Origin: Gnetum montanum
Lineage: Eukaryota > Plantae > Gnetophyta
Length of the DNA: 64,000 nt
Reading direction: 5' to 3'
NCBI GenBank assembly: GCA_015680685.1
Contig: MNCI01000673.1
Location: forward strand, 1-64,000
Below the pieces are notes generated by a model. That model searched no databases and had not been told where the DNA came from. It saw only the letters and a program-made list of their open reading frames with translations. The position numbers and the translations under genes are program-made. Below, in pieces: positions 38,630 through 64,000 of this stretch (positions are counted from its first letter, which is position 1; every line of letters begins with the position of its first letter).

Positions 38630-41600
38630 TCTCTCCCATCCTTAAATTTGAAACTTGTTTTAAGTTGGATAAACACTTGGGATAGCATTAAGCCCCCAAA
38701 AAGCCAAATTATTATCATGCATCCAAATTTCATTTTTTAGGCTCTTCATCATTCAAATGAATCATTTATTCATGCACCTTTTGATTCCTTATGCTCCTAG
38801 CTTTCCTTACTTACAACATAATAGATTCCCTTGGTGACTTAAATGGGCTTGGATTAGCAAGTACATTTTTAAGGATCTCTAAACTATCCTCCAAGTTAAA
38901 GGTGCACATCTTGCCATGGTAATGGCTTAAATCTTAGGCTCTCCTTGCCTAAATGAAGCCATGCATAATCTCCAACATCAAAGAACACCTTTCATTTTCC
39001 CAAGATCTTTGTAGTACCAACTTCTTTGTCCTTGCCTTCATGTTTTATCTTCACTTGCTTATGTAAGTCTTGCATTCCTTCACAAAATAATAGCTAACAT
39101 AAGCACAATCATAAAATTATTTCAAATCATAAGACATTTGAGAGGCATAGCCATAGTTTACCTCAAATGGGATATTCCCAATTCTAGGGTGATAAGAATT
39201 ATTGTAACTAAACTCATCATGTGATAAAAACTTTTCCCACCTATTGGGCTAATTCTCACAAAGATACCTCAAAATTTTAAGTAATGATTTATTTACAATT
39301 TTAGTTTGGCCATCAATTTGTGGATGATAGACACTAGAAAAAGATAATTTGGTACTCAAAATTTTTCATAGTGACCTTTAAAAATGACTTGTAAGTTTAA
39401 CATCTCTTTTACTTATAATGTTTGATGGAAGATCATGTAATCTTATGACATTTTGAAAATATAAGTGAGCAACATGAGATGTATCATTACTTCTTTTACA
39501 AGGAACAAAATGGACCATTTTAGTGAATTTATCAACAACAACAAAAATAAAATCATGACCATCTTGTATCTTGGGAATCCCACAAATAAAATCCATTGAA
39601 ACACTTTCCCATGAAGCATTAGAAATGGGTAAAGGTAAGTAATGTCTAGTAATACCTTTACCTCCCTAGAATTTTTGACAAACAACACACTCTCTAATAA
39701 ATTTATTTATGTCATTTCTTATACTTGGCTAATAGTAGCTCTTTCCCACAAGTTCATAAGTATTTTTCTTACCATTGTGTCCAACCATACTATAATTATG
39801 ATTTTCTTCCAAAATTTTTGACCCAAAATCATATTGTTTTATACATATTTTATTATGTTTGAAGACGATGCATTGTTGTAGATGATAGTCTCTTCACCTA
39901 TCCATTTTACTAAGTAATGGAGCCTAAAGATCCCTCTAAACCTCTTCAAAATTAGCATCACGAGAATACAAGTTAGGATTTCAAGTCGTTGTACTTGAGC
40001 ACAAGAGTGATTCACAACATGGATTCTTAAAAGAGCATTTGCTACTACATTTCTTTTCCCACTTCTATGTTTCAAAATGAAACTCTTGCAATTATTCTAC
40101 TAGTTTCATATGTTTAGTGCTTAATTTTTTTGAGAAATTAAAAATTAAAGTGTTCTATGATTAGTAGATAAAGAAACTATGATCCTAGTAATTAATCTCT
40201 CTAATGTTTAATGGCTTGAAGCATAGCATATAACTCCTTTTCATACACACTATAATTTTCTCTAGATTTATTTAATTTTTTGGAAAAAAAATGCAGTTGG
40301 CTTATCTTCTTGAGAGAGCACACCTCTACTAGCAAGCCCACTTACATCTACCTCAACTTTAAAAAGTTTTGAGAAGTATAGAAATTTCAAAACTAGAGCA
40401 ATACAATTTTTCTCTTTTAATTCTTGAAAAGATTTTTCTTTCTCATTATCCCACATAAAGGCTGAATTTTTCTTAAAAAAAGTGAGCATAGGACATGCAA
40501 TAAAACTAAAATTCATAATAAATCTCCTATAGAAGCCAACTAAACCAAGAAAGAATCTCATCTCTTCCACATTCGTAGGTGAAGACCATTCTTTGATTAT
40601 CTTGATCTTTCTTGATTCCATCTACTTGGTTCTTAGAGAGAACATGACCTAGGTAAACAATTTCTCCTTTCATGAAGTGGCATTTCTTGGAATTAATCAC
40701 CAATGCAACCTCTTGTAACTTGGAGCATATCATCTTCAAATATTATACATGGTCCTCTTCTTTAAAACTGTACACAAGCATGTCATCAAAGAAAATAATA
40801 CAACATTTACCAATAAAATCTCTTAAAACTTCATTCATGAGCCTCATAAATGTGGTTGGAGCATGGGTTAGTCCAAAAGGCATGACTAACCACTCATACA
40901 AGCCATCTGGTGTATTAAGGGTTGTCTTCAATTCATCTCCCAATCTAATCCTTATATGATGATAATAACTTTTTATATCAATTTTAGGAAAAATCTCAGC
41001 ATTGGCAAGCACATGAAGAATGTGATCCATCCTAGGAATAGGAAATCTATACTTGATAGTAATTATATTGATAACGCTAAAATCTATGCACATCCTTAGT
41101 TCATTATTATCTTTCTTTAGAACAAACATAGCTAGAATGACACAAGGAAAGATGGATTCCTTAACAAAACCATTAGAGGGTAATTCACTTTCTTGCTTAA
41201 TTCTCCCATTTGATTTGAAGTCATGTAATGGGCTCTTTCATTTGGAATTATAGCTCCTAGTATGAAGTCTATTTGGTGTTGTATGGATCTCATTGGTGAA
41301 AGACTGTCCAATTTTCCCTTGAAGACATCTACAAATTCCAATGCCAAAGATTGCACCACTAGAGGAAGTTCATTTGTAGTCTCCTCTTGACTTGTTGTAA
41401 GTGTTGACATGATAAAAAAAACCATGCCCAGCCTCTTCATGTTCTTGTAGGTACTCTTGCTCACCAAACAAGATCAATGAAGCATTAACAGGGATATTTT
41501 CCTTGTACTACTGCCAAGTCATAGGAATGAGTTCATGTATGTCATATTCTCTTAGGATAGACCAAACATTTCTTGTATCACTGAAATAAGCCATATTGAC

Positions 41601-43528
41601 AAAGTTCCAAGGTCTTCCTAAAATAACATCAACATAATTAATCAAAAGGATATCACAATGTACCTTGTCTCTAAAGGATCCAATTTTAAAGGATAAAATA
41701 CATCTCATTTTTACCTCTTGTAAATGATCCTTGGAAAGCCAATGGAATATATAGGGTTTAGGATGTGAAATTTTCTTCAACCAAAGCTTAGAAATACTCT
41801 TTGAAAAGATCACATTTTCTTGAGCACTACCATCAATTAAAATTTGTATCCATTTACTAGTATATAGACACATAGCTATAATCATAAAGAGCATCTTTCT
41901 TCTAGGATCCTCATTGATATTCACTTTTCTCATAAACATAAAAAAATTAATTTTAGTGATATCTTCAATCATTGGTGCATGAGGATTACCTTCATTAGAG
42001 AATTCTTTCTTCTCTAAGGTCTGAACCTCCTTACCTTTGGAGATCTTCTTCTTACACTCCCATTACTTATGTCTCTTTCCACCATAATTGAAGCATTAAA
42101 GTTTGGATGCATAGTCATTTTCTTGTCCCCCTTCATTCTTGAGGTAGTCCTTCTTGAGCTTCTATTGCTTCTCCCTTGTGTCGTCTTTGGCATTTTCCTT
42201 CTCCTTGGCTTCCTTCTCATCGTAAGAAGCTTTGGAGTGTTTGCCTTTAGAATATTTGGCATCTCTATTATATCCTTGGAGTTTCTTCTTAGTCTTAAGA
42301 TCTAATTCAAAAGTCTCATATAATGTTTGTGGCTCATAGAATATTATCTCTTTTTGGTATTCTCTCTTTAATCCTCCTTGGAAATTAGATGCTTGTTCAT
42401 AATCATCTCAAAGAACTTTTGCAAGTTAGAAGGCTTTACAAAAATCCATGTAAAGGTCTTTAATACTCTTATTACCTTACCTTAGCTACTTCAATTTTTG
42501 AATTACTTCTTACGCATGCTGGGTCTTCTCAAATTTTTATTTAAGCATGAACTACATCAAGGACCAATCTTTGATGGAAGTTCCATTACTTACAAGGTAA
42601 GAATGGCTTTATTTTTCCCATTAAATTTATGTCATACCATCAAGCTTGGTTTCAACATATGAAACCTATTGATTTTTTTCATATCTTCTAGTTCAAAGTA
42701 CTTTTTTAAATTCTTAAGCCAAGAAAGAAATGATTTAGTTCCTTCCATCCTATTAAACATCTTCACTTTCACATAAGACATTTTAGAGGCATGCCTAAAA
42801 GCCCTTACAAGAGTAATCTCTAATCCTTTCCTTTGGTTCCATTAAGGTCTAGAAGTAGATTCACTGTTTCTTCATCTTGGAAATATAGACCTATGGGACC
42901 TTGACCCAAAAATTAGAGAATGAGGGTTTTCATCATGGTCCTCATCTTTGCCAATGTCTTCATTCCCAAAATGAATGTCATCTTAAAGAGTAGGCATCAA
43001 TTGTTTCCTTGATGAAGAAGCCCTTGATGAAGGAAACTTAGAGTTGACATCTTGCCTAGTTGCCCTTGATGTTGGAGGTTGATCCTTCTTTTCTTTAAGC
43101 TTTCCCATTCTATTCACAAGAGTCTAGAGTACATCCTCAAGTCTTCCATGTTCTTGGATAATCCCTTGACTGATTTTTGCTTAGGTGCCATGATCAAGTA
43201 GACCTAAATGAAAAATTAAACAAATACCCACAATAAATTGCATAAGTATTAAAAGTGATCACAACTCAATATTTAGCATCCAAATAATTCCCACAAATCC
43301 TAAGTAGGTTAATGAGTATCTTAAAAATAGGATTCCTCACTACCCAATTCACTTGATCATACCAATTGACCAAAAGAAGGCTAATTAAACCCTAATCAGG
43401 TATTACAATTAACATCAATAAAATTGCAAACCAAAATAAACTTGAACAAAATGAATTCTTGTGAATTGTTGTAGTGGATTACTTTTCTTGAGGTAATTTT
43501 CTTCAAATCCTATGCTATGCTACCAATC

Positions 43529-44336
43529 TAGTGAGGATTCCAATACTTCAAGGCCAAAATTAAAATTCCAATCTTCAAACTTGTAAAATGAATTAAGACA
43601 AGAAAGGAACATAGTCCTTCATTCTTGCAAAATCATGATAGAATTACAAAGATGAAATCAAACTACCAAAGGATACATAGGAGCTTAAGAGAATCAAACT
43701 CACAACTTCTCACACAATAGAAAAATCACAATGATGAAAAGCCTTATAACATGTTCAATCCTCTCTTCTCAACTCGCTTTCAAAAATCTATCACAGCTTA
43801 CTTCTTTCTTTCCTATTCAAATGAAAAGCTTGGATTCCTTTTTATAGTCTCTTCCCAAGTGTTCCTTCATCTTTCCTCCCATTTGAAATTTAAATTGAAG
43901 TCCATTAGAATCTATATAAGATGTCTGAGAGAAGTAGGATATTTCTTCCTTGAAAAAATTAAATCTCAAAAAAGACATTGTAAAGTCAATGGAGACATCT
44001 TGTAGAAGACATCTTGAAGATGATGTCTTGGATCAGTAGGAGATGTCTCGCTTGAGTTGTCACTGATCTTAAGAAACATATTTTTTTAGCATGTGATATC
44101 TTGGCCTACCTAGAGAAACCTTGGCTAGCATAGACACATCTTGATAGAGAGAACTATCAAAGATTAAAACTCTTCTTGAAATTTCCATAACTAGAATGCA
44201 CTTCCAATATCCTTTTCTTACCTCCTGGAGATGTAAATCAAATACAAAAATATAGACACATCTAAGATACAAACAATACAAAAAAATAAAAAACATAGTT
44301 TGAGGATGTTACATGGGTGGGGTAATATTTTCATAA
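43529..44336 (-). repeat. 5' LTR of element D
   Basis: Homologous to 37866-38629; Met-type PBS adjacent. Confidence 0.85.
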
Positions 44337-44385
44337 ATGTAAATTAGTAGTCTTTTATGTGCATAATATTTTTTAGATAATGAGT

Positions 44386-45641
44386 TATAACACCCTACCT
44401 TAATGCTCCTAGCTAGGATGAAGTGATGCTTAAGATCACTAGTAATAACAGAATGGACGTATGATAAACTATAAGCTAATGATGCATGAAAATATGTTAA
44501 GAATAAACCATTTAATATATATAATATTAAGATAGACCAAACTACATAAAAATCCATGCCAAACCAAAGACTAAGCATATTGATCAATTTATAAAACTAC
44601 ATGTCTCTATGCAAAATAAAACTTAGTACTACTTTTACAAGATACAAATTATAAACTTCATCATATACATAAGACTATAGTGAGGGTTATACAAATATGA
44701 ACAATCCAAAATACTACATATGAAAATATAAATTAGCCAATCCCTAAGAATTTCCCTCTCCTTTATTCCCTCTCAATGCTTGCTTGCATCCCTATGGATT
44801 CCACCTATAAATAAATAAAGTCAATATAATACTAAGTGGAAAGCCTTTATACTTCTCTTACTAGATGGTTAATAAGTGTTGCACTAGAGGAGAGGAATGG
44901 AGTACAAGAAAACCCACATCAACTATTAGTCTTATGTATGCTCTAAGTAATACTTGTGCATACTGTATCATACATAGCATAAGCATAATCCCTACTAAAG
45001 TGAATAGATAGCCATCACATAGTCATAGAGATACTCATTGTCAAACATAATCAATCATATATGTTTTACACCACACCACATGCATCTATGCTATTATGCC
45101 CATACCATCATGCCCACTCCATACCATCAAGCAACACATGGACCACATAAACATAGATCAAACATAACACATATTATCAATGCTATGATCCACAAATCGA
45201 TACCATCATATACACAACCCATATAGTCACTAGCATATCTGCACTTAGTGTAGCTTGTAAAACATTTCCATGAGTGCTCATAAATAATCATTTCCTATAG
45301 GTATTTATTAGTCTTCTATTTATCTAACTAGTGCTAGGATCCATCAACTTGTGATCCACAATTGCTAGCCTTTTGGAGAACTAGCTATAGGGGAAAACAC
45401 ATCTATGTGATGTGCCAACTGTAGGGATGAACATACCTACACTCTCCCACTCTCAGGATGAGGCTTGAGATATGAATGTTACTAATTCATCATAGTGGGG
45501 ATCAATCCATAACTACCTCTAGGGTACCTCATCACCAACTAGTCCACATCCTTATGTTAGCATCACCTACCAAAAACTACTACAAGTGTTGTTGCGAAGA
45601 CACATATAAATCTAGGCTAGCTTAAACTAATATATGTTACA
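44386..45641. mobile_element. Possible Tekay/Del-like solo LTR relic
   Basis: Ends TATAACACCC ... ATGTTACA resemble Tekay TGTAACACCC/GGGTGTTACA termini; CATA-rich interior; no TSD. Confidence 0.4.
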
Positions 45642-47224
45642 AGTGTTTCACTTGGAAAATTTGGTCACTGGAAAACTAAAGATCATAAGCATGGAATAGG
45701 TTTAGTCTTGGATCCCAAGGACCTCCCAAAAAGAGGATTCAAGGCACGTTGGATGATTTGGCCAATCACCGAGGGATATGAGAAACATAAACATGGGTTA
45801 ACGAACTGCAAAAATACTATAGATTTGATCTAGGAAATAAATGCAAAAAATAAAATTATAATAACTTTGCATAGAAAATGAACTATAAATTTTATTACAA
45901 TGAAAATATTGTAAATAAAAAAAGTTCAAAATGTGTATAGATAGTGCCTAGATGCATAAGGGATTTCTCTTGGTGGAGTTTGAAGCTTGTTGATGCTAGT
46001 AGTCTAGAACCATAGTCAACTATATGATCTAGGTACTTTGCAACTTCCAAACCAAAATACCATGCTAATTCCTCTCACAGATCTATAGCATTGGTCATAG
46101 GGGGGGTAAGGCATGTGAAGAACTTTTGTCACAAGGGGGGTACTACGCTAGAAGTCTTGATGCCCAAGTAATTCAACATTACTCTAAAAAGTCTCACACA
46201 AGCCTTAAGTGTTGAAAAATCTAGCTGTAAGTTCAACATTGAAGAATTAACCAAAATCTTTATGTTTTCTCCAAGATTAAAAAGCTTAGTAATTCAAAAG
46301 TGGTGGAACCCTTTCAATGTATTTAAAGTGAATTTATATAGGCTATATGGCTATTGAATTTTGGCTGCAAATTTTTGTCATGATTACTAATAGATTGGTG
46401 TCATGTCCAGGTGTGGCATGTATTTAATTCTATCATAGCTACTATTTGTGGGAAGTTTTGATACCTCCAAGGCACCAAAACCATGCTAGTTACCAAAAAT
46501 AGTAAACAGATTTTTCATCCACATTGGTTACTTTCACCCATGCTTGCTTTCCAATAGTAATGTTGAAGTTATGGAATCAATGCTAAAATTTGATGAAAAT
46601 GGAAACTCCCACCACTCCAATTCTATCCTTGATGTGGCAATGCTAGCTTTATGTTGACTACACTGGCCATAGTTGGGGGAATGAAAGCAAAATCCTCTAA
46701 TGCTAGCATAGATGCTTTCAATGTAGTAATGGTCCCCCCTCCCCCCCCCTCCAAAAAAAAAAACCCTATGAAAATGTTAATTTTGGTAGTCCAAAAGGCA
46801 TTTTTAACCTTCCCAAGCCCAAATATAAACATGGTGGAACTTTGTTCACTTGGAAAGTAAGGCTATAATAACTTATGATATTTTAGCAGTATGTGAAATT
46901 ATATCTCATGGATTACAATCTTCATATTTTATAATGAAATTCCAACCTCAAGTTTTATGGGGTGAAAGTTATAATGCTAAAAAGGTTACAACATGCATTT
47001 TCTTGGTGGTGTTTCATTGGCCCTTCTTTGTTGATGCTTGGAGGATTGACCCAAGATACATCGACAAAGAACACAAAACACCACCAATAGACCAGATCAC
47101 CATAGGTTACTATCATTACAAAGCTCTATAGTTTATTTATTGTGCTAAACAAAGAGGGAGATAGAAAAAGAACATACAAGCGTGCTTGCAATCTGATGCA
47201 AATGTTGTATATGTCAATTATTAG

Positions 47225-50200
47225 ATGTAATAGGGTTTTATATAGGAATGGTTGACTAGATTGACTAGTTCATTCCCATCCATGTCTGCAATATTGAATG
47301 CTCTATTTTTGTAGGCCTTCATGATTAGGAAAGGCTCTTCCTAGTTAGCTAAGAACTTGTCTGGATGTTCATGGATAGCTTTGAGAACCAGGTCTCCCTC
47401 CTTAATCTTCCATTTGTTTAGGTCATGATGATGTTGTTGTTTTTGCCTCTCTTAGTATGGCTTAATGTGAACATGCATTCGTGCCCATTACTCTTCCACT
47501 AAATCTAGGTTAATAGTACATAGCTTCTTATTCTTCTCATCATTGATGAGGTTTGATAATGTCACTCTAAGTGATGAAACCTGCATTTTGAAAGAGAAAA
47601 TAGTTTCAATACCACAAACTACGCTATACAAGATTACACTAATTGTAGTTCGATAGCTTATTCTGTAGGCCCAAAGTACATGAATAGGCTACTCATGCCA
47701 CTTGCATCTGCTATCATTAAGCATATTTTTCAACAAGCTTATGATGGCCTTCTTGCCTGCTTCAACTTGTCCATTGGCTTAAGAATAGTATAGTGATGAA
47801 AAGAAATGCTTGATAAATAGATCTTGACAAAAGGCTTTAGTTTCCTAGCTGTTAAATTATGGTTCATTATCTGTGACTATGATCAAAGGTATGTCAAAAT
47901 GGGCCACTATGTTAAGTATAAATCTATAGACTTGTTGAGATGTTATTTTTCTTAGGGGAATAGCTTCAACACACTTTGTAAAGTACTCAGTTGCAATGAT
48001 AATGAAACTATGCCCTACAAAAGATTTAAGCATTACAGGTACAACGACGTCCAATACCCACTATTGAAATGGTCAAGTTATTGAGTAGTGTATAACTTAG
48101 TTGGTGGCATGTGTATTAGGTTGCTATGCCTTTGATAGGTGTCCCAAGTTTTGATCTTCTATAGGTAGTGTATTTTCATATAGGGCTAGTAATATCCTAG
48201 TCATCTAATTTTAGAGACCATGGCTCTAGGTCCTATATGCCCTCCACATACACCCTCATCAACTTGCTCCAAGACTATGCTGGCTTCAATTTTTCCTAAG
48301 CACGCTAAAAATATGTCATCATAGGACCATCAACATAATGTATTATCTCTTATAATGATATACTATTTTGATCTTTTATGTACAATGTCCTTTTGAGAAG
48401 TAGTTAGGCTTTGTGAAGATTAACCATGCATTAGGTAAAACTTAATATTATCATACCACTCCTTTTGAGGAGTGATGTTGACAAAGGCTATGGAATCACT
48501 CCTAGTCTTCTACGTGGGAATAGTATAGTTCATGATTAAGGAAGGTAAGTTGCTAAACACATCACACATCATATTTAGGTCTAAGGATGAAATGAAATTA
48601 GCTAACATGTTCTCAGTTCATGGTATATGTTGGATATAAATGTTTGTAAATTATCACATTCGTTTCTTACCTAGGTCATAGTAGGGTTTCAAATGTTTGG
48701 CTTTACACATGTAAACCTTGAGTACCTCATTAACCATAAGTTGTGAATCACCTTTTATTATCAAATGTTTGATTCCTTCATCACAAGCTACCATCATTCT
48801 CCTAATTAATTCTTCATACTTTGCCATATTGTTGCTACATGAGAATTCAAAATGATAGGAGAAGGGTTGGATTTCACAAAAAGATGATGTTATGATAGTA
48901 GGAGCACTAGCCCCATGGATAGTTGAAGCTCCTTCAAAGTGCATAATTGCCTCATAGCCCTCAAGTACTTTGGTAACAATGTTGACATGATTTTCAAGGA
49001 ATTCAAGATCTATGGTTGCATGGTCTTCTACTAGTGAAAAATTAAATGCTTGAGAGACATAATGGAGATTAAATTTGGATGTAATGACTTTTCAATACGC
49101 TATATGGATAATTTCATAAATATTCATTGGTATGGTCCTAAGAACATCATCCTTGAAAATAACATTGACCTAGCTCCTAAAGAGGTAGTGTTGTCACTCC
49201 TTTAATGAGAAGACTAGGGCTAGACAATACTTCTCCACCTCAGTGTATTCAATGCATGGCTTAGGTAGTATATTGGTAACTTTTCTCCATCATATTGTTT
49301 TTGATAGAGTAGAAAGACAATGGACATATCAAAGATTGTAAGGCATATGTAGAAATTTTTATCCTTTTGTGGTGGATAAACCATGGGTAATTATGCCAAC
49401 TCTTACTTAAGGTTTTCAAAGCCTTATTGGCATTAAGTTGTTCACTCATAGTGAACTCCTTTCTTAAGCAAGTGCTGAATGGATTGTAACTTATTTGTAA
49501 GCCTAGAAATGAACCTAGGAATAAGTTGTAATCTACCTTGAAGTCCCAAAAGCTTCTTATGATTGGTTGGTATTGATAGATTGGATATGACCTTAACCTT
49601 GTTAGGGTCAACATATATTCCTACTTCAACTACTAAAAATCCAAGCATGTTAACAATTTTGACACTAAAGACACATTTCTTTGGGTTAAGCCTAATATCA
49701 TACTAAGGCATCATTTCAACATGAGGTCAAGATCATGTGCATGGTCATGGGCCATTTTGGATTTAATGACTATATCATCCACATAGTCATTAAGTAATCC
49801 TAGCATATAATCACTAAAGATATACATCATGGCTCATTGATAAGTGGCTCATGCATTCTTTAGATCAAAGGACATCATGGTGTAACAAAAGGTTCTCCAA
49901 GGGGTTATGAAGGTCATACAAAGTTGATGTTCCAGGTTAATCCTAACTTTTTTATATCCTAAAAACCCATCCATGAAGAATAATAAGGCATGTCTAGCTG
50001 TAGTATCAATAAGTTGGTCAATATTAGGCAAAGAAAATTCATCCTTGATGGTTTCCTTATTTAGTTACTTCAAATCATTATAGCTACATATACTCCCATT
50101 TTTCTTAGGGAGCACCACTATGTTGGACACCCATTTCATGTAATCAACAACTCAAATGAAACTAGCCTAATATAGCTTTGTGATCTCATCACAAACTACC

Positions 50201-50691
50201 ATGACTAAATTTGGTCTAATCTTACAAACATTTTACTTACCTAGTTTCATACTAAGGTCAAGTATGATTTTAAGTTGCATCAAGCATGGGTGAAGACCTG
50301 GCATATTTTCATATGATCAGGTAATCACCTTATTGTTGTCTTGGAGGACCTTGGTGATATCTTGAACCTACTAAGGTTTTAGTGAGAAACTTAGTTTTAG
50401 CATTTTATCCTCACGATTATGTGTCATGACAAGAACTGTAACTAGAGAATCCTTGGCAACGTCACCAACCTCAAGGTCAAGGGTTTAAACTGGATTTTTA
50501 GGGCATTCTAGAGGTTTCTCTATCAATGCTATGTGGTCAATGAGGCTCTTAGAATTAATATTTAAGTGATTGAGATCAATAAATTGTTCAACTTCACCAT
50601 GAGGTCCACTTAGGTTCAATGGAAAATGGATCTACTTCTAAGTGTCCATACTCTAATCCTACATATCAACCATAAGCACATTAAGTGGCAC
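47225..50691 (-). pseudogene. Degenerate RT-RH-aRH-INT of element E
   Basis: *SYENMPGL, PNIDQLIDTTA.HALLFFMDGFLGY..MMSFDLKNA, YVDD; aRH HFEGAS..CSNNMAKYEELI..KGDSQLMVNEV (48654-48944); integrase IIIATEYFTKCVEAIPL, N*EEPF. Confidence 0.92.
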
Positions 50692-51029
50692 CTATGTAAA
50701 ATGATCAATTAATATCAAAATAATGAAAAATACTTCAATAATAATGCATGAATAATCAAAAAAACATTGCATCAATGGTCAAACAAGGTTTAAATAGGGT
50801 GACTAAGGTTACAAGAGGTAGGTGAAATAAACATGATGAAACAAAGGCCAAACAAGGTCAAATGAAGGGCAAATGATAGGTAAAATGTGGTCAATATTGG
50901 TCAATTAGGGTTAGATTTTGTTATTTTTAGGCCATAGGAATCCATAGTGGAAGATCACAAGGTTGAAAGATGAGTTTGGGCACTAAATGATGGTGTTTTG
51001 AGGTCATTTAAGGTAAAAAAAATCAGGCC

Positions 51030-53290
51030 TTTTTTGAGCTTCCACATTGGACAACATGGGTGGGATGAGCCCTAGCATGGATAGGATGGAAATGTGATTT
51101 TATAGTTTGAAAATGGTCATTTTTGGAGTCCTGATGATTTGTATGGTTAGTGAAATGAACTGTGGATGTAGATTTGGTTCTGGTGTTGATTTGATCCTTT
51201 AGAAGCCATAAAGACAACTTGGAACTACCATCCACACTAGGACTATGTTGGTCAACGTGGTCCCAATGTGGGTACATGGAGAAATTGAGTTTATAGCCTC
51301 CCAAGGTTAAAATTGATGTTCTATTGGCTTTCTAGGGTAGCATAGGGTCATGAGGTTTGGAAATAGTGACTATGAAGCCAAAATATGCAAATAGAAGTGG
51401 GTTTGGGGTATTTCCCTCTAGGGCTATGCTAGCTATCATAGCTAGGGGTGGTCCTAGTGTGGATGAGTAAAATATGGTATTTTTATGATTAAATAAAGGT
51501 TAAATTGTAGCTACATTTAGGGTTTTGAGGTTATATACTCCCACAATTGAGTTTTGAGGCCATTTGGTGGAGGTTATGCTGGTAAAACCTATTTGAAAAT
51601 CCAACTACATTAGAGCCATACTAGGCAGCATGGTTCTAGTACCCTGAAGCATAGTTACATTTGATTTTTGCTTCTTAGTGAATTCTACAAAAAATTTACA
51701 AAGTTTTCAATATTTTAGGATCACTAGTATTCATGGTCAAGGTTTAGGCTTGTAATTGTCAATGTTGAGGGTTGTTTGAGTCTTAGCATGGTCATACCCC
51801 CTTAGACTATGCTATCTAGCATAGTCCTAGTATGGATGAGGGGGTATGATGAGTTTTTTATCATTTGTTAACCTAATTTCTAGGTTTTTATGAACCCTAA
51901 AGGATTTGACAAAGTTCTGGGTTTCCCAAGTTAGATTTTTTGTTGTTTGAATTGTTGTAATATTGGAAAAATTGATCTTAGGCCTTATCCACACTGGAGC
52001 CATGCTGACTAACATGGTTGGAAGTGACCCCAATGTGGATGGATAAGGCATGATGTTTTTATGACTAAAATAAGGAAAAATTGTAGTTGGTTTTAAGGTC
52101 ATGATGTTCTAGGCTTACCAAGTAGAGTTTTAGATATCTTGGTGTATTATGAAACTAGTAGAATTGGTCAAAAACCTCATCAACATTAGAGCCACATTGG
52201 ACAATGTGGCTCTAGCCTTCTTCAACATGGGTACACTAAGGTTTTAACTTTTAGGTGGTTTTGGTGCAATATCAACAAAGTTATTGAGTTCCTAGTATTA
52301 TTGATGTTGATGGAAAGAATTTGATCTTGAAATTGTTAATTTTAAAGGCTTTTTTATGGCTTTTGTAGTCATCCCCCTCTGGCTATGCTAGCTAGCATAT
52401 CCCCAACATGGATGAAGGGGGAATGAAAGGTTCTTACCATTTTTGACTCAATTTCTTGAGTTTTGGTAGTCGCTAGAGGCTTAAGTAGGGTTTTAGGGTT
52501 AGAGGGATGAGTTTTGAGGTTGACTTGACCCATGTATGGCTTTTCTATTAATTTTCTTAGGGTACCCACAAGCTAGCATGGGTGAGGGCTTCCTTAGCTT
52601 GGGAAAGGAGGGTAACATGAAATTTGACTTATTTATTATTGATTTTTGGTTATAAAATACTTTGGGAAGTCATAGTGGCCATGATATGTCAATTTAGAGG
52701 TTTTTTAATATTTTACAACCAAACCCTATCCAACCATGTTAAAGCCATGTTGTCTAGTGTGGTTGGGGTCTTCTCCAGCATGGATGCAAGGTTAGAGTGG
52801 AGTTTTGACTAAATTTTCCTAGTTTTCTTGACATTTTGGGATAAGTAGGAATCTTGGGAAAATGTAGAGGCCAAAAAATGCAAGTTTGAAGGTCTTTTAT
52901 GGCATGTTATGGCCAAACCCCTACCATCCATACTAGAGCCACATTAGCCAATGTGGATGGGATGCATCCTAGTGTGGTTGACCCAAAACTAATGATTTTT
53001 AACACTTACTGTAGGTTTTTAGGGGTTTTGGGAACTATTGGAGGCTTCTACTAGGGTTTTAGGCTTTGCATATTATTTTAGAGTCAAATTGATGCCTAAT
53101 TGGTGTTTGGAAGTGTCATTTACCATGGAGCCAAAATAACAAATTTTGTTAAGGGGGTTAGATTCCTCAGTGCTTGATTTTTTACAATGTGTTAACCTTT
53201 AGTTTTTAGTTTTGGAATAGGAGGTTTTTAGGCTTCAATGTGTTGAGAATGGTGGACAAATCCACACTAGATCCATGCTAGCTTTATGGA
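51030..53290. repeat. Array of palindromic cores at ~190-bp period with diverged spacers
   Basis: Dyad centres at ~51050, 51251, 51432, 51624, 51815, 52008, 52200, 52391, 52572, 52753, 52947 (partial 53281). Confidence 0.85.
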
Positions 53291-53419
53291 GTTATTAGTG
53301 GATTTTGGTGGTGACTGAAATTTAGAGTTCATCACAAGGCTTTATGGAGCTTCAACCTGAGTGTAAATGGGGGTTTTGGTTGTGGATTTCATTGCAATGG
53401 GATTTTTAGTATTTTTATT

Positions 53420-56400
53420 AGGAGGCACCTAGTAAGACCCATCCAAATTTAAATGGTGTTTTCATTTTGAACTTCCCACCTTCTCAATGTAGCTAGGATT
53501 TTCCCCTTTTGCACTCTTAATTCACTATGAGTTGAGTAAGTGACTTTAGGAAAGAGGTTTTTAATGGATATGCATAGGTAGAGAGATCTTGAAAAAATCA
53601 TTTTATGAAACTCATTTTCTCAAGGTAGTGCATCTATGGAGAGCTCTTACAATATTTTTTACTTATACTCTACTAGTTCTCAATGTTGCTTACCTATTCT
53701 CCCTTAAGGAGTAGCATTGGCATTTAGAGCTTGGAGATTTTTGGAGGTTTTTGCATTGTTTATGAAGATGTTAAAGAGGAGATTAGTCACAAGCAAGAAT
53801 CCTACCTTGGAGGATGTAGAAATTATAGCCAAATGATTGTGACACTTGCCACAACCCATATTGGAAGAAGGATCATCTTCAATGACTCCTAGGTACATAA
53901 TTCTTGGTCATTTTCTCATGTGTTTTTACAATTTTCTTACTTAGGGCCTAGGTGTTTTGGCTTGTTTTGGTTGATTTATGACATGAGATCTAATTTTCTC
54001 AAAACTCTATGTTAGATCTAGGCCATGTTTATGAGGCTTTGTTGTTGCTTTGGTTTTGGGATTGGTCTATGTCAAATTATACATTTTGTTCCAGTCTTTT
54101 CTATGTGTTTTTTGTAGCTTCCCACCAAAAAGGAACACAAATTTTGTATTTTTTTTATGTGAAAACAACTTAAAATTTTCATTTTCTATGGCCATGGGGT
54201 TGTGGTACATTTTTCAAAGGTCAAAACAATGGTTGAACCATTGGATTTTGACTTATGGTGAATTTTCTGTGAATTTTTCCATAAGCTAGTTCATAGGGGT
54301 TTTTTAGTGTTTTGTTATTTTTTATGCTATGTTTCCAATTTTTAATGTAAAAATAGATAATAATTTTTGGTTTTTTTGGATTTTTAATTTTTAGTTTACT
54401 ATTTATTAGTTCAAATGGCTATGGAATCACTGAATTCTGATCCATAGTTACTTTTTGTGAGTTTTTTTTTGTGGATTAGTATACAGTGAAATTTTTAATT
54501 TTTATGGTTTTACCCCTTCAAAACTTGGTAATGTTGACACTTAGAATATTTTTTCCAAACAACATCCTAGGTTCTTGGGGATGTTTAAGACTATTTGGGG
54601 GGTTTGGCATCAATTTTGAATGTTTGAAAATTTCATTGATGTTTTTTTCAGTAATTTACTGTTAAGTCTTATTTTAGGTTTTAAAGGTTATAAGTGGTAT
54701 TCTTTTGTCTAGTCTAATGTGGTAACATTGGTATTATGGTTGTAGTTTTAGTTATCTCTAATTTTTTTTAGTAATCATTAGGTTTTAGTTGTGGTCATGT
54801 AAATTTTAAATGGTTATTTTTATGTTGTGCAAGGTCTTTCTCAAACCCATCCTGATGGTGAATGAGTTGGTGGGACTCTTGTGTTGTATTCATACACTAG
54901 GGCCCAACACTTCACCTCCGCATATGGTGTTGGAGTATGATTCATTATTTTTTAGGCTAAGAACAAAGAAGTTCCTAGCCTTTTTGTTGGAAAACTTTAG
55001 TGTGATGGTGTGGTCACACTTAGCTTTCTGCATAATAGCTATTATCATGAAAACCTTGTTACCTCATTCTACTAGCTTGATCATCAAATTTATTGTTTAA
55101 GATCTTGAAACACATGCCTAGGATGAAATACTTGATGGAAAGTATACTAGAGGTACTTGTAAGCTATCCAATATTTGGGACATGCTCGAGTTCAATCAAT
55201 ATAATGCCAATAATACATTGTTAGTCAACCAATGTGTCAACACATTATTTTACAACCTTCCTAATATTGTCTACCATGTGGAAGGGTAAACATGATTTTG
55301 GCTTATACATTTGGTTTAATTATCAATCTCATTAGGTTATTTGGTTTTAATAGCCTTTTTCTTGGATTGGCATATTTGTAGGTATAGGTTAAATGATCAA
55401 GGGCTCATCAAGGATGTCTAGTTCTTGCCCTTAGCTCAAATAGCATTGCAAGTCTTTGCCAAAGCACCATAGTGTGGCTCATAGTGGTGGAGCAAATCAA
55501 AGTTGACCTTGGTAGATACACCACACACTATGCCCAAGCCTACCAAAGATGCATAGCCAATGGGATGGCTCTTGATTGGTGGGATAAATCATATCTTGGT
55601 GTAGAGGTATGTGTATTCCTTAGGACCTTCTAGCCACCTTCCTCAAGTAGACAAAGCAAGGATGTGTAGTTTCATTTTAGTCTTTGTTTTTATTTTTTCA
55701 TTATGCAATGTTGATGTTTTCTAGTTATATCGTTATTTGGCGATCTTGGCTTTGATTGTTTTATTGGTTCTAATGGTGTTGTCCTAAGTGTTGTTTCTAA
55801 TTCATTATGTTTAATACTTATTATATTACTTTATTTGTTTTTTCCTTTGGATGTTGTATGATGTACTTGTTCCAAAGCTAACAAGTCATTTTTGTTGTGT
55901 TGTAGGGGCTACATCACCATTCTTCGTCACCGTAATTTCTTTGGGATGTGGTGAGAAGATAGTTATCCTTAAGTTTGCAAGGTGGAGGTGGCATAGAATT
56001 AGTTAACTAGCCAAGCACCCAAGGAGATCCAAGCAATGACCACCAGCATAGGATTGCTTGACTTAGTCATGGCTCCTACTCGAGCTATTCATACCTCTAA
56101 GATGATGAACATCATCAACTCCATTAGCAAAGGAGTGAAGAAATTCATCGCTTAGGTCCATGGTGTGCCTATCACCTTGGTCCTCAATGAGTCTATCATT
56201 TGTGATCTCTTTGGCATCCCTTGTGAGGGGATGAACATTGCCACCAAGCCAAGGAAAGATGCACACATTGGAAGAAGGTGGAACAATGGCTAAGTACTTC
56301 TTGCAGCCATTCTAGATTGTCCTTGACCAATTGTCAAGTCATGGAGGTGAATGAGATGTACCCATTATTCCAGTCCCAGGCTTTTCCTAGCTCTTATCAT

Positions 56401-58460
56401 AGAAGAAGATGAAAGGCATTGAGCAAGCATGAACCATGAAACAGTTCCTCACAAAGGATTCTCAGTTCAACTGGGCTACTCATTTGGCTTTTGGGCTACA
56501 AAGGGAGATCCTAAAAATTTGGGAGAATCTTGACATGATAAACCACATGCATTATGCATTCTTTGTAGTGTATCTTAGGATGTTCATGGAGTTTCTAGTG
56601 GTGTAGAGGGATGGATGATTAATGTTCCAAGATCCATACCAGCTTTCTAATCCTGGGGGTAAAACATATCTTTCCAACCATGTAGGCTTAGAACCCACTA
56701 GAGAAGATTGGGGAATTGATGTTCATTATCACTAAGAATTTTAGTGATGTACATTATGCTTCCCTTGACAGCATGGGGATGCAAATCCAAGTTTTCCAAG
56801 AGAATGTTGAGAAGGCCAAGGAGTTTCACACTGAAGTTGATGGAGTAGCTACATTGAAGTTGAAGAGGCTTGCAATTGAGAAAGTAGCACCAATTATAGA
56901 GCAGCCTACGAAGAGGATTCTTGTGGCTAAACTTAGCCAAGTGCATCACTTGGTCACAAGTGCATCTTATTTATTCTATCCTTAGATTATCTTTGCATTT
57001 ACACTTCATGTTATATGGCTATATTGTTTTCTTTTAGCCAAAATCATGCTAAGTCATTCTATGTTTTAGTTCCATTTTTCTTATAGACAAGCAACAAGAA
57101 CTGGTAGCCTAAGTAGTAGTAGCAGAGGTAGAGAAAAGGTGCTTAGAGGAGGAGGTGCTACAAAAACATGAGGATGAGGGATTATGCAATGCCACATTGA
57201 ATGATCTCAATGCTATATTTGATGGCTCATAGCTAGATGAACCCATTGTTATCATCTCAAATGATATCCCAAGTGCTTATGAGCTTTGTTTTAATGTGTT
57301 GTATTTCATATTTTCATGTTTAAGCTTGGTTTTAACAATATGGGCTAGAGTTACACCTGTTGCAGTTCCTAAACCTAGTTAGGTACCTCAACCTCTACAT
57401 TCCACATGAAACCATGGGTGGAGGTTTCTAATAAAATGAAGTTCATATGTTGGATTATCATGGATATGATCAATTAGTTGCAATAGGATTTCCCGATGTT
57501 GTTAAGAATCTAAGTTTATCTTTATCTTCATCATTGGTTCATATAGGTCTCATGGTCATGTGATCTTAGTGGTTTAGAATTTTTTTAGTTATTCTTTGTT
57601 GTTTAACATGCATGTATTGTTGGTATATTACTTGTAGTGCCTAAGGTTGGATGGGATTCCAACCATGCCATGGAGATTGATGCTCTACCTAGCTTGCCAC
57701 TTGAGGTGGAAAGTGTTTCATGAAAGTTATATGAAAAGGCCACTAAATGTACATTTTCATTTGTAATAACTTTGTTGGAATGCGAATGTTCAAACAAGTT
57801 TCTATGAGAGAGGTTCATGGCATTAAATAGGGAGACTATGAGATAGGTTGAAGTAATTAGAGATCTCTAGGATTGTAAGGGATTCATGGAAGCCCAAGTG
57901 AATAATAGGGAGTCCTTGTAGACCAAAGAGATAAGATGGAAATGGTATTGGAATGCCATTCATGGAAAGATTGCTCTTTCCAAAAAGGTTGCAAAGTATA
58001 AGTTGTAGATGCACCTATTAGCCTATAAGGCTAGGTAGTGGAGGGAGTATTATGCCAAGGTCCTCAAGTCGGGCTGAGTAGAAAAGGACCATGAGAAAAA
58101 GTATAAGGTTGAACAGGAGGCCTATCTTAATTGGTTGTAGGAGGAGTCCACAAAGTGATGCAAGTTGGAGCCATTCATGAAGGGGATCCAAGTAGAGTGT
58201 GTCTATAAACTATTTGAAGGATCTTTAGTGGTGGATGACTTCCCAACTCGTTAGGTTACTATGGCTTTTGGGGATGTAACTATAGCTATGTTTTCATAAG
58301 AGCCACCTATATGGACCAATATTAATGAGAGAAACATCTTAACAGGAATTAATCTCACAAATGTGGATTGGGCCTACATGACCTAAGACCAAATCATCCA
58401 TCATTTAGAGGTTGGTTTTCAAAGATTCATCACAAAGGAAACTACTCTAGAGTCTTCCTA
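53420..58460 (+). pseudogene. Decayed multi-exon gene of unknown function, antisense to element E
   Basis: Purine-rich coding-like blocks (e.g. ORF 56716-56985; KDHEKKYKVEQEAYLNWL) alternate with T-rich blocks ending in TAG acceptors (55905, 57086, 57637). Confidence 0.55.
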
Positions 58461-59245
58461 GGTTTGTTTAATTTTTTTAATTAGTTATATTTTACTTTAA
58501 CTTAGTCTGTGGTTTAATTATATTGATTATTAACTAGCCCTTTGTTGTTATGATTGGTATGGGTACCAGGTGACATCAGCCTTTGTTTATCTATGAGACA
58601 TTTATTGTTATTTTACATTATTGCTACATAGTGTAGTTATGGTTATTCAAACTTTTATTTATTCTAGACATTTGTTAATTGAACTTTCATCACACTGTGT
58701 GAGTTATGGCTATAGGCTATGGACATTTTGGTTATTATCATTATATCTATTTTAATTTGGCTTATACATTCTAGCATTTTTATTTTTATGCATTTCATGT
58801 TTATGTTATGAGTCCATGTTAGGCTCCATTGGTTGGGTCATGTGGTTTTATAAGGTTATTCATTAAAGTAAAAGAAAAATGCATGTTAAACTATGGCAAT
58901 GAAAGGTAGACTAAAGCATAATAACTAAGAATAGATTATGAAAATGTTGCTAGTTTTAGGTTATGGTGGGTCATGTGTTATCAATTTTAGGCCATGGTGG
59001 GTTATGGCTTTTACCAATTTTGGGCCATGGTGGACCATTCATTTTTTTTTAATTTAAGACCATGATGGGCCATGCATTTTGAAAGGGAAGAACAAATAAA
59101 AGTAAACCATAGGTTACATGCTACAAATGCTAAAACAAGGTAGAATAAAGTAATGCAAAAAAAAAATGATGCATGTAAACAAAGGTTAAAAAAAGATTAT
59201 GCTACATGGTTGGTGGGATAAGATGAGAAAATAAGAAACATATGT

Positions 59246-60476
59246 TCAATTGTGCAAGTTTTTCCTAATCTTCAAGAGATTATGAAAGGTGTAGGGTCTA
59301 TGTTGCACAATCTTGTATTCCCTATTTCCTTTGCTAATCATGTTGAAGGGGAGCTCTTGCCATGATGCATCCACAGTTACATTGTTATCTATTTGGGCCT
59401 CTTTTGCTCTATCAGGTCTTTGGACTTCATTTTCTATAGTAGGAGCAGGTTCTTGAAACTCCATCATAAATCCTTGTTCTATGTCCACATTGTTGACCAC
59501 CAAGGGAACTCCACTATCATTATGGACAATTATTCCACCTCCCTCATAAGACAAGTGAATTTCTTGGTGGATGGATGAGCAAATAGCTCATAATTGAGCT
59601 AACCAAAGCCTCCCAAGAATGAGATTTAATTTTAGTATCTCTTCTACCATAAATAAATTTGTTGTTTTGGGGAATGATTCCCCTACTGCAAAGTCCAAGG
59701 AAATTAATCTTTTAACTATAACCTAAGAGCCATTAAAGGATTTGAGAGAAAAAGTTGATGTATGTTGCATGTGCTCTATTATGAGTAAGCATTCAACAAT
59801 GGTGTAGGGTAGAAAGTTAGTGGCTACCTCATCACCCACATGTACCCTATGTACTTTTTATTACCATACTCTTATTGTTATGAAGAGAGGGGTCTTGGTT
59901 GTCATGCCATCTTGGGGGGTTGTTCTTGATTTCACTATTAAAGAACACTAGTGTTGTTGACTTCATTTCTTTCTTAGGTGAAGGTGGTACAATCACCATG
60001 TGGATGGACTCTCCACTAGCGAGGATGCCCTCACTAACAAGAATAGAAGTCAACATCTTCACTAACATCTCATGGTATGCAACAAAGGTTATTATCAATT
60101 CGTGCAAGCTAAGGGATGTATTTTTTTTGTTTTAAAGACTATTTAACCTATTCCATGGCATTAAGAAAGTCCTTATCATTTGTTGTCATTTTTTTATTTT
60201 TGTTCGCTTTGAGTTTCTCCATGCATCCCAATATGCGAACTTTATGTTTAAGTGGTTGTGCCTTAGTCTCTTTCCCCTTTCCTTGTGGTTTGGAGTCCTC
60301 CTATGTTTGGCTACTTAAAGTGGCCTAAGTTTTAGAGCTCATGGGAAAGGATGAAATAGGAGTGGGCTTCAGTAGGCTTACTTCCTTCCATGCCTTGGCT
60401 TTGTTGTTGTATTTGTTCTTGGGTGAAACACCACAAAATTTTGGGTCTCAGCATCTTGACAACAAATTTGGCTAAA
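59246..60476 (-). pseudogene. gag end / aspartic protease of element E
   Basis: HRVHVGDEVATNFLPY (degenerate VDxGxxxNxLP), LKSFNGS, LLGR-W-like, PSTK, continuing into ORF 59246-59554. Confidence 0.65.
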
Positions 60477-60596
60477 TGTCAAAACAATGGCATTTTGACC
60501 ATATTCTATCCAAGTGTTGAGTGTAGTTAGCTCCAACTACCAAATTTGCAAAATTTTTCTACGTGTTAGAATCATGGCACTTTCTATAGATTCACA

Positions 60597-61392
60597 TGTC
60601 ACACTGCATAGTGTAGTGCAACGTAGCACCCTGTCACACTACGTAGTGTAGCATAGTGTAGCACCCTGTCACACTATGCAGCGTAGCATAGTGTGGCACC
60701 ATGTCACACTACGTAGCATAGCGCAGCGTATCATCCTATCATGCTGCATAGTGTAGCGCAGCATAGCATCCTATCATGCTGTGTAGTGTAGCATAGTGTA
60801 GCACCTTGTCACACTACATAGTGTAGTACAGCATAGCACCCTGTCATGCTGTGTAGCGTAGCACAACATAGCACAGTGTAGCATCCTATCACACTACGTA
60901 GCATAGCACAGTGTAGCATCCTGTCACACTACGTAGCATAGCACAATGTAGCATCCTATCACACTACATAGCATAGCACAGCGTAGCACCATGTCAAGCT
61001 ATGCAATATAGTATGGAATAGCACAACGTAGCACAAGTGTCAAGCTGTGCAGTGTAGCACAGTGTAGCGCAATGTAGCACAAGTGTCAAGCTATGTAGTG
61101 TAGCATAGCATAGCACACCTATCCAGCTATGCAGACAACATCCCATGTCCTGCATGTAACATGGGACAAGTAGAGTAGACAGCATCCCATGTTCCACATG
61201 TAACATGGGACAAGCATGGCAGATAGTATCTTGTGTCTCTCATGTAACACGAGACGAGCATAGCAAATAGTGTTCTATGTCCTGCATATAACATGGGATG
61301 AGCATAGAAGACAGTGTCCAATGGCCTATGCATAACACAAGACAAGCATAGCAAATAGCATCTTCTGTCTCATACGTAACATTGGACAAGCC
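60597..61392. repeat. Tandem arrays within LTR of F: ~34-bp units, then ~41-bp units
   Basis: GTCACACTACGTAGCATAGCACAGTGTAGCATCCT-like units, then ATGTCCTGCATGTAACATGGGACAAGCATAGCAAATAGCATCC-like units. Confidence 0.9.
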
Positions 61393-62199
61393 CAATAGCC
61401 AATGTCCCACCTGATCCACATTTTGGGCTAACCCTAGCCCTATAAGTACCCCTACACCCTAGTGTTTTAGGAGAGGCATGGAGGAAGAGAGGGGTTAGCT
61501 TCCATTTTTCACCAGTAAGGTAGTTGGCACTTCCATTTTGCATTTGACACTCTGGCATCTTGAAACTTAGCTCTGTGGCCAAACGAGACCCAGAGCACAC
61601 CACATCGGAAGAAAGGCATAACTACACTACATGGTATACTACAGCCCCATTGCAACCCTATAGAAGATCGCATGGTACACCATGGCTACCAACCCGGTAG
61701 GCACAATTCAACATAGTGAACACTAGACTTCACAACCTGACACCACTAAGGCTATGACTATGCTCCCACTACATCTATTATACATTTGTGTATCTTTTGA
61801 GACTCATTGCGAATTAGCTATTCTCCCTCTTTTGGGGCGGTGCATTGCTGTTCTGAAATTCTGTTGCATTTCTCAAGCATTTCTCTTTTTCATTTAGTGT
61901 AATGCTTGTATTTTCTTACTTTTCATGCATATTTGCATGTTCACGTCATAGTTCTCAAGCTGGGACACCCTACTATGCTCTAGCTTTTCCAGACCTGATG
62001 CCCACATGTAACGTAGTATAAACTCTTCTCACACATGGTCATTTTAACACCATGTAAGTCCCTGTCTAATTGACAAGACCATTTAGGGCATCCCATTTCC
62101 ATTTTCCCTAGCATAGCCCCCACACGAATTTAGGGTTAGGTTGTACGCTCGTGGACTTCTCAGTGTTCCATCCACCAACATTTTTGGACATCACAGTTT

Positions 62200-62217
62200 T
62201 TGTAGCTAGAAGAAGGG
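62200..62217 (+). promoter_or_regulatory. Primer-binding site, tRNA-Asn type
   Basis: TGTAGCTAGAAGAAGGG versus TGGCGCTAGAAGGAGGG, the complement of the plant tRNA-Asn 3' end. Confidence 0.7.
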
Positions 62218-62278
62218 CCTGACCATTTCCATCTCCATTTTTTGATTAGCACTTAGTCAAAACTTTGGATGTTCTAGA

Positions 62279-62640
62279 GAGTGTAACAAGTTCTTAGAGT
62301 GTAGAAAGCTTTAGTGTAGCGATCTTGACAAGCTATAGTGTAGCGAGCGTGGAAAGCTCCAGTGTAGCGAGCATGACAAGCTATAGCATAGTAAGCTCTA
62401 ACGTAGTAAGCATGGCAAGCTTTAATGTAGCAAGTGTGGCAAACTCTAGCATAGCGAATGTGACAAGCTCTAGCTTAGTAAGCTCTAGCATAGCAAGTGT
62501 GGCAAGCTCCAACGTAGCAAGCATGACAAGATATAGCGTAGCAAGCTCTAGCGTAGTAAGCATACCAAGCTACAGTGTAGCAAGCTTTAATGTAGTAGGC
62601 ATAGCAAGCTTCAGCATAGCAAGCGTAGCAAGTGTAGCAC
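62279..62640. repeat. 24/15-bp tandem array in the 5' UTR of F
   Basis: CAAGCTCTAGCATAGCAAGTGTGG-like units; source of the repetitive ORFs 62325-62767. Confidence 0.9.
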
Positions 62641-63437
62641 CAAAGTTGGCCATTTTCACAGTTTTCATACTTAGCATTTTTTCTATATTTTTCCACTTAA
62701 CCATTTTCATATAATTTTCTACTACTACATACTTAGTCATTTTTCTGCAATTTTCAGAGTTAGCCATTTTCTACAAACTGCAACTCTCACAACTCAATCT
62801 ATGAATATGAATTCAGGTTAACCTTCCACATCAATGTCTAACACGTTTGATACCACAATCCAGCCAAAGCATCCTACACAAAGCTACGAACAATATAATT
62901 TTTTTGTGCCAAAATTCAAGCAGGACTACCAGTGGACTACATTCATTTGGAGGCAAATTAGGACTATGAACAAGTCCACTAGAATGGATGGAAGTACAAC
63001 CCCTCCTTGTTTGACATAATCTCACTCACGAAGTCCTACCACTAATTGTTGTTCCAACTCATCTATGCAAACAAGCATGATGCAAGGACAACCTACGAGG
63101 AAGCCTCACAAAAGGAAGAAGATGAGTTTGAGGCCCACTTCGAGCATGAGAGCCCCTTCTACATTGTCTTCCAATGACCACTCCCTAGTATAGCCCCTTA
63201 GTTCAATCCACCCATCCTCTTTGAGATGGTGACCATGTCAATTCATCCTTCCTTTCAAGAAACTAATGCATTTTCCCAACACTATGCTCATGCAGGGACC
63301 ACCTCCCAGCCCCACAAAACTCAAGTATTCTACATCCCACCTATCTTGTTGGTGTCTGTGGTATCTATCCAACCTACTCATGTGTGTTCTACTTTGATCA
63401 CCACACATGTCTCTCAGCCAACACATCAACTAAACCC

Positions 63438-63580
63438 ATCCACTATGATGTTAAACTAGTAACAACTGTTCACTATGACATTAAACTAGAAACAAGCAGC
63501 TACTATGACATTAAACTGGCAATGCCTATCCACTATGACATTAAACTAGCAACAACCATCTGCTACAACATTAAACGAGC
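63438..63580 (+). repeat. 30-bp in-frame-length tandem repeat (about 5 units) in the gag region of F
   Basis: CCACTATGACATTAAACTAGCAACAACCAT-like units. Confidence 0.85.
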
Positions 63581-64000
63581 AAACTCCACAACCAACAATT
63601 TGACCCTATGCTATGCAACCAACACAAGCCCAGCCAATGTAACCAGCTGGCACATCCCCAAGCTTGGATCAAGCATTCCAACTGATCCAAAGCTTGATAG
63701 AGGAGATCAACCGACTCAAGGCTACCTCCTCCAACATCATTAAGGTGGTGGAATTCTATTGAGATGATCCCATAAGTCATATGATACCACCTCTAACTCT
63801 CCCAACTGGGGTCCAACTACCTTAATTCACCAAGTACAATGGTGAAGGGGATCCTAATGCACACTTGGTCATATTTTAATCTGAGTGCCTACTCTTTCAA
63901 GCCTGGCCACATGTAATCATGCACATGTTCCCCATGTCACTCATGGACAAGGCCTTAGACTAGTATTGCATGCTACCCAAGGCCTCAATCTCCTCTTTGG

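Follow-up and report, generated by a model that had tools for sequence, protein, structure and literature searches.

A candidate giant intron with an antisense gene and a palindrome array between protease and reverse transcriptase of a Tat-type retrotransposon in Gnetum montanum

RESULTS

A Tat-type element with its protease far from its reverse transcriptase

The subject of this study is a long terminal repeat (LTR) retrotransposon on the minus strand of a 64,000-nucleotide (nt) stretch of Gnetum montanum DNA (contig MNCI01000673.1, positions 1 to 64,000), which we call the window and which consists of repeat-rich plant DNA with strong CpG loss. A spacer of several kilobases separates the protease (PR) of this element from its reverse transcriptase (RT), and the spacer holds an array of palindromes and what is likely a decayed multi-exon gene on the plus strand. 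A preliminary description of the locus had placed PR and RT on the same strand about 8.7 kb apart, and this was confirmed: the interval from 59380 to 50692 measures 8689 nt. We found that the protease frame is open past 59380 to a stop at 59248-59246, scoring as coding down to about 59281, and because it is coding-like beyond 59380 we put the non-coding spacer at 8554 nt rather than 8689 nt. The parts of the element, all on the minus strand unless stated otherwise, are as follows.

59921..60424: what is left of gag at its 3' side, continuing into the protease; presumed gag from position and frames, no Pfam match
59513..59920: decayed aspartic protease; matched by the profile of fetched Tat loci at E 7.6e-18, and by tblastn against Tat proteases with E as low as 6e-10
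59246..59512: remainder of the gag-protease frame, open up to the stop; candidate GT donor at 59380 in the phase of the acceptor, its use presumed; another GT at 59239 beyond the stop
50692..59245: spacer between gag-protease and pol, 8554 nt, no strand assigned; putative giant intron of the minus strand (distances; multi-copy)
50692..50752: T-rich tract ending in TAG, acceptor-like, in phase with the RT frame (sequence; contig breakpoints)
47221..50691: pol, decayed (Pfam; end of frame)
50094-49705: RT core (Pfam RVT_1)
49441-49244: RNase H (RH; Pfam RT_RNaseH_2, E 3e-7)
48839-48594: additional RNase H (aRH; Pfam RVT_3, E 5e-8)
48075-47788: integrase (INT) core (Pfam rve)
46733..46752: polypurine tract, about 470 nt beyond pol (sequence)
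Polypurine tract down to 44335: 3' LTR-like sequence of presumed extent; no second LTR survives

The element is a Tat-type LTR retrotransposon. An aRH, a criterion of the Tat lineage, follows the native RH, and the order PR, RT, RH, aRH, INT is that of Tat structure 1 in the sense of PMC10508981. In a quick tree of 86 rows its RT fell within a 78-row group of fetched Tat-like loci (support 96), so that the Tat assignment of the preliminary description held. Membership in Ogre, which had also been proposed, did not: the RT lay outside a 52-row Ogre-like group (support 97), a placement that is weak and unsure given its long end branch, in a tree with no named references in which the Ogre-like group was defined by loci with 5' DUF7745/PMD open reading frames (ORFs). 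Pfam saw neither protease nor gag in the frames of the element that were scanned, and the protease was recognized with a profile built from 14 fetched Tat loci. Because every frame contains many stops, this copy is dead. Its 5' part has been lost at 60424, where 111-133 contigs per run depart from the window sequence; these and all other contigs described here come from four public DNA runs of three organisms.

To place the PR-RT distance in context, we compared it with that of relatives. An RT search found 5 relatives among 12 candidates, and their alignment then fetched 79 loci from metagenome contigs; an RT search with the long broken frame and a search of viral contigs found no relatives. 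From the protease to RT residue 200 the distance is 9826 nt here versus 1083-2566 nt in 39 of the 79 fetched loci. The remaining 40 were mostly too short to inform, and the 10 long ones that we checked proved to be truncated, deleted or nested; a giant spacer was seen in none of these 10. When the spacer is removed, the distance from PR start to RT residue 200 becomes 1137-1274 nt, at the low end of the range in relatives. Four fetched Ogre-like loci had T-rich PR-RT gaps of 216-639 nt. Separately, an AT-rich Tat group (L001:3900-5130, L002, L003, L006, L018 and L063) has a continuous and unusually long PR-RT linker of about 400 residues.

The pol-side border of the spacer is acceptor-like, and the GT at 59380 is in the same phase as the TAG at 50692. 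A border search found no target site duplication (TSD) plus terminal inverted repeat (TIR) pair and no LTR pair, in agreement with the preliminary description, and no CACTA-type end; old ends may have decayed. Apart from the palindrome array, the spacer contained no LTR-like direct repeat, and nothing in it matched the 3' LTR region of the element. The observed/expected ratio of CpG was 0.03-0.10 across pol, array, antisense gene and gag-PR (0.03 in the array of this dead copy) versus 0.34 in a neighbouring LTR. Because they share this level of CpG decay, pol, array, antisense gene and gag-PR form one age class, and the neighbour is younger. Rfam gave no match in 44000-64000.

The spacer carries a decayed gene on the opposite strand

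The features of the spacer are given below.

50789..50799, minus strand: TATA-like motif, located some 105 nt above the acceptor of pol (sequence; looked for post hoc)
51041..52956, no strand: 11 degenerate palindromes of 18 bp, arrayed at a period of about 190 bp; a 576-bp block of three units is duplicated
53768..53892, plus strand: possible first coding exon, ATG to AG/GT (borders and composition; coding score p 0.28)
54956..55285, plus strand: exon-like block (p 0.027; borders)
55382..55606, plus strand: exon-like block, identified solely from its composition (T 0.27) and its AG and GT borders (coding score p 0.76)
55906..56959, plus strand: long exon-like block with several frame changes, acceptor 55905, donor 56960 (55997-56265 p 0.04; 56390-56700 p 0.18; 56700-56948 p 0.003)
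57087..57272, plus strand: acidic exon-like block (p 0.003), its phase fitting the donor at 56960
57349..57423, plus strand: short exon-like block starting at 57349 or 57366, AG/GT donor at 57424
57638..58461, plus strand: last exon, a single frame of 273 codons with 13 internal stops (p 0.003; TTGTAG acceptor)
58945..59074, no strand: four repeats of 31-35 nt between the 3' end of the antisense gene and the protease tail (repeat search)

Composition and borders suggest that the plus strand of the spacer likely carries a decayed multi-exon gene of up to seven exon-like blocks, running antisense to the element. The T content of this strand is 0.24-0.34 in the exons and 0.47-0.49 in the introns, with GT and AG at the transitions. 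We then scored the blocks, which had been picked by eye beforehand, with a codon model trained on the fetched loci, and found a significant plus-strand coding score for five of the eight stretches tested (300 shuffles, p 0.003-0.04). The score of the last exon was 25.9 bits in its own frame, whereas the other five frames gave -39 to -67. RT, used as a control, was significant (p 0.01); two introns and the palindrome array were not. The spliced opposite-strand gene of the preliminary description is thus backed by the five coding stretches, the alternation of composition and borders and its presence in several copies, but not by the other three stretches.

Searches for relatives of the encoded protein were negative. 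No family was found by Pfam on 21 and on 13 frames, no relative by a word search of longer proteins or a metagenome scan, and nothing at E 0.001 when the last exon alone was compared by phmmer with 1.84 billion proteins. Three frames compared with Protein Data Bank (PDB) sequences gave a best E of 0.057, which we took as chance, and tblastx and tblastn found no match in the 79 loci or the rest of the window. A single-sequence fold of the protein had a pLDDT of 34. To the eye, 56150-56520 resembles Transposase_32-type domains, an impression that was not confirmed.

An array of palindromes precedes the gene

The array at 51041..52956 is real and far above chance. Its 11 unit centres run from 51050 to 52947 at spacings of 181-201 bp (mean, 190), with a higher-order period of 576 bp, and the units scored 10-31 bits when each was left out of the profile in turn; Markov-shuffled sequence gave an expected 0.06 matches per 2.8 kb (300 shuffles; maximum, 1). 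Of the arm positions, 72 of 99 pair exactly, 17 differ by a transition and 10 differ otherwise. A candidate twelfth unit at 53281 was rejected at -3.5 bits. The preliminary description had put the array immediately upstream of the gene, and this part did not stand: about 0.8 kb separates its end from the first exon-like block, whose score is not significant, and 2.0 kb from the first block with a significant score. The array begins 350 nt from the pol acceptor, with the head of pol on one side and that of the antisense gene on the other. The term "nucleosome-spaced," also used earlier, is apt for the period of about 190 bp only and says nothing of nucleosomes.

Copies in DNA and RNA runs

Contigs of the four DNA runs indicate that both pol and the antisense gene occur in further copies. 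In the four runs, 93, 106, 122 and 119 contigs match pol as far as 50701 and then diverge into A+T-rich sequence. This family-wide border falls 8 nt past the in-phase AG, as would fit a shared acceptor followed by a fast-changing intron. Exons as well as introns of the antisense gene are covered, in each of the four runs and in three organisms, by diverged copies with a likeness of about 80-85%, and in array and gene 8-23 contigs of each run show single-site differences from this copy. Some contigs of other copies also break from 57426 to 57626, within a predicted intron of the gene, in each of the four runs. One contig, from run X6 only, joins 56033 to 59555 and so links the antisense gene to the protease in a deletion form elsewhere. 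In three of the four runs, contigs join 47382/47409 to 50642, the end of pol to its start; this junction likely marks a non-autonomous derivative that kept the acceptor side and is without RT to integrase. Contig depth, summed over the array (148-465), the exons (418-1385) and RT (over 30000), does not measure copy number or allow the parts to be ranked, and was not used.

Four RNA runs yielded 101, 71, 91 and 403 aligned reads, 666 in total, from 26, 26, 26 and 2 in 100 of the respective runs. A weak hint of expression comes from poly(A) RNA holding a distant relative of 57856-57900 in the last exon, with 8-13 reads in each of runs X13-X15, which represent two samples of one study (40 of 253 rows listed). 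Of the eight differences listed for this match, five affect third codon positions (hand-calculated p of about 0.09). A 30-nt stretch at 54991-55021 is also matched by RNA reads, which are unlike the window on both flanks, and its bin has high summed contig depth; this is probably a short match to unrelated sequence.

Neighbouring elements

A younger element on the plus strand has its LTR at 60424-62180, truncated at 60424 (CpG observed/expected, 0.34); this LTR has palindromic arrays of 35, 46 and 44 nt above a TATA-like site near 61440. The leader of the younger element contains 24/39/63-nt tandem arrays at 62300-62630 and a 30-nt tandem array at 63436-63582, and we take the frame that follows near 63800 to be gag-like. 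On the other side, a separate minus-strand gypsy element at 37869-44334, its LTRs 70% alike, adjoins the 3' LTR region; by its motif its protease is presumably CRM-like.

DISCUSSION

The spacer as a probable part of the element

On balance, we think it more likely than not that the spacer belongs to the element, with an accessory gene inside a giant Ogre-like intron between gag-PR and pol. The spacer would be removed as one giant intron, joining the protease tail to 50691 and yielding Gag-PR-Pol, whereas unspliced LTR-driven RNA would yield Gag-PR ending at the stop at 59246. Unspliced RNA would also serve as the genome through which new copies acquire the spacer, as has been shown for the Ogre intron, which is much shorter. 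Spacer and flanking genes would be linked in other copies too. The antisense gene would be an accessory gene of the family, relocated to the PR-RT gap from the 3' position usual in Ogre and Retand, and its promoter would lie within the array or beyond it, comparable to that of Grande gene23 (PMC7264820). The array would then act as the promoter/enhancer region of this gene, possibly with binding sites for its product.

Several observations weigh against this account. In the fetched loci nearest to this RT (8 viewed), the frame from PR to RT is continuous. The departure of contigs at 50701 fits equally well with the absence of this particular spacer, at 80% likeness, from most relatives. No contig crosses either spacer border among the 32 matches listed (273570 more exist), and no second full-length copy was read in the DNA runs. 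The candidate donor differs from that of Ogre-like loci: the GT of the likely donor overlaps the gag-PR stop in L009:6021 and L019:7178, and not here. The earlier claim of a giant intron stands as to its geometry, which is intron-like once the spacer is removed, but there was no spliced joint of any kind in the four RNA runs, which have few reads and are too thin to decide. Three of the eight stretches tested in the antisense gene are not significantly coding, and the protein has no detected relative or family; because each family search used a broken single frame, the latter is weak evidence of novelty. Finally, the TATA-like motif above pol favours a promoter of pol's own.

This last point leads to an alternative that we consider unlikely, namely that pol is expressed from its own promoter within an element-owned spacer, with the array as a two-way hub for pol and the antisense gene, and that gag-PR is a separate, LTR-driven unit. 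The position of the array between both gene heads, 350 nt from the pol border, would suit this arrangement, as would a TATA-like motif about 105 nt above that border, ATG codons at codons 7 and 10 of the RT frame and a gag-PR stop without a convincing donor. In addition, 6 of the 19 best array-profile matches outside the array lie in the repeat array of the neighbouring LTR, above its TATA-like site; all six are below threshold and are copies of one repeat. However, the motif was found post hoc, and at the window rate (12 occurrences of the strict pattern in 128 kb) its chance of falling within 200 nt is about 2 in 100. One of the 12 matches, at 47246, was rejected as a promoter candidate and lies within integrase coding sequence. 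Furthermore, the family-wide border falls at an in-phase AG, as a splice site would, pol without a Gag fusion would need another route into particles, and no RNA start is visible in the thin RNA runs.

A shade less probable still is that the spacer is an old passenger, a transposon or captured gene that inserted into a short intron of the Ogre type and no longer has its ends, having been passed on within one subfamily or having spread by itself. A spliced gene on the opposite strand resembles a DNA transposon or a host gene, many relatives diverge just past the acceptor, and fetched relatives have gaps of 216-639 nt or none. Yet the borders show no TSD, TIR, LTR or CACTA-type end, though decay could hide old ones; no transposase or host family was detected in the spacer; its level of decay equals that of pol; and one contig links the antisense gene to PR in another copy. 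None of these four points is decisive. The chance that PR and RT belong to two elements joined by deletion or recombination, which would make their distance meaningless, is very slight: the region is rearranged and the element has lost its 5' end at 60424, but no LTR lies between PR and RT, strand and order agree, the spacing becomes normal once the spacer is removed, and a chimera does not explain the shared border at 50701.

Comparison with known systems

A similar layout is known from Ogre, in which GAG-PROT is set apart from RT-RH-aRH-INT by a non-coding region that is a partly spliced intron in pea and Medicago (PMC6317226, PMC4408406). Like Ogre, the element has a gag-PR ORF (stop 59246) and an RT frame (from 50691) separated by a non-coding region. 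Unlike Ogre, its spacer is 8554 nt long versus a mean gap of 274 bp (PMC6317226), about 30 times the size of the Ogre intron; no gene is described in the Ogre gap in the portions available of PMC6317226 and PMC4408406, and the RT lies outside the Ogre-like clade of our quick tree. Antisense extra ORFs are common in Ogre, with eORF-3'R in 60% (PMC6317226), but these are found 5' of gag or 3' of pol, often with a PMD. Here a PMD/DUF7745 profile (6 loci) found no match in the spacer, the roughly 470 nt between the end of pol and the polypurine tract leave no room for an extra gene 3' of pol, and the 5' side, where the tRNA-Arg primer-binding site that marks Ogre would lie, is lost.

In Retand and Grande, too, the element includes several kilobases that combine an antisense gene with tandem arrays (PMC11963269, PMC7264820); gene23 of Grande is driven by an antisense promoter of its own, and its product is nuclear (PMC7264820). 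Their region lies between pol and the 3' LTR and measures 2.9-6.6 kb, whereas ours occupies the PR-RT gap. Most of their ORFs contain TRP28, and their repeat units are 8-100 bp; here we see a multi-exon gene and units of about 190 bp. The long pol-3' LTR region and antisense TRP28 ORF that define Retand were not found, the former being about 470 nt and the antisense frames having no Pfam match.

VANDAL elements also combine a multi-exon accessory gene with tandemly repeated motifs in non-coding regions, but VANDAL is a Mutator-like DNA transposon, and its VANC protein has DUF1985/DUF287 and demonstrated binding and demethylation (PMC5735166). No Mutator-like transposase or ends were found in the spacer by Pfam and the border search, and Pfam found no DUF1985/DUF287 on broken single frames of the antisense gene, while the model that would bear on a MAIN-like fold had a pLDDT of 34. 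The earlier analogy with VANC anti-silencing gained no support from sequence or structure. By analogy alone one might picture an overlooked gymnosperm Tat branch in which a lineage-wide multi-kilobase control module parts gag-PR from pol, and whose antisense product would bind the array and activate the element or shield it from silencing as VANC does, with the internal promoter and transactivator of foamy viruses as a further parallel; we regard this as improbable.

The gymnosperm structure-1 Tat clusters J and K share the order RT-RH-aRH-INT with our element, and GAG and PR are not listed for most of their published representatives, as the present layout would cause. Table S3 of PMC10508981 lists neither for five of five structure-1 cluster J and one of two cluster K representatives, but PR is given for every one of the 17 representatives of cluster E, for 8 of 9 in H and for 6 of 9 in L. 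The pipeline behind these representatives reads 7500 bp around RT (PMC8775202) and is therefore too short to span an 8554-nt spacer. Two points count against reading the table in this way: the pattern may reflect divergent gag and PR, and some entries without GAG and PR list LTRs found within that 7500-bp span (PMC10508981). The available parts of PMC10508981 and PMC13468544 describe no spacer, intron or extra gene for J and K, and we have not placed our element in either.

The layout may be lineage-wide and overlooked in gymnosperms. If so, it would explain the missing gag and protease of the published representatives, and pipelines with a 7.5-kb span would mis-annotate an abundant group. Extra ORFs of plant retrotransposons have been described upstream of gag or downstream of pol, the only positions scored in the main survey (PMC6317226), and the literature that we searched contained no gene-bearing PR-RT spacer, a point on which the per-element data of that survey could bear. 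A spliced gene in the PR-RT gap would thus be a third extra-ORF position, and even though this copy is dead, the union of a candidate accessory protein and its candidate target array in one module would make the function of an extra ORF directly testable.

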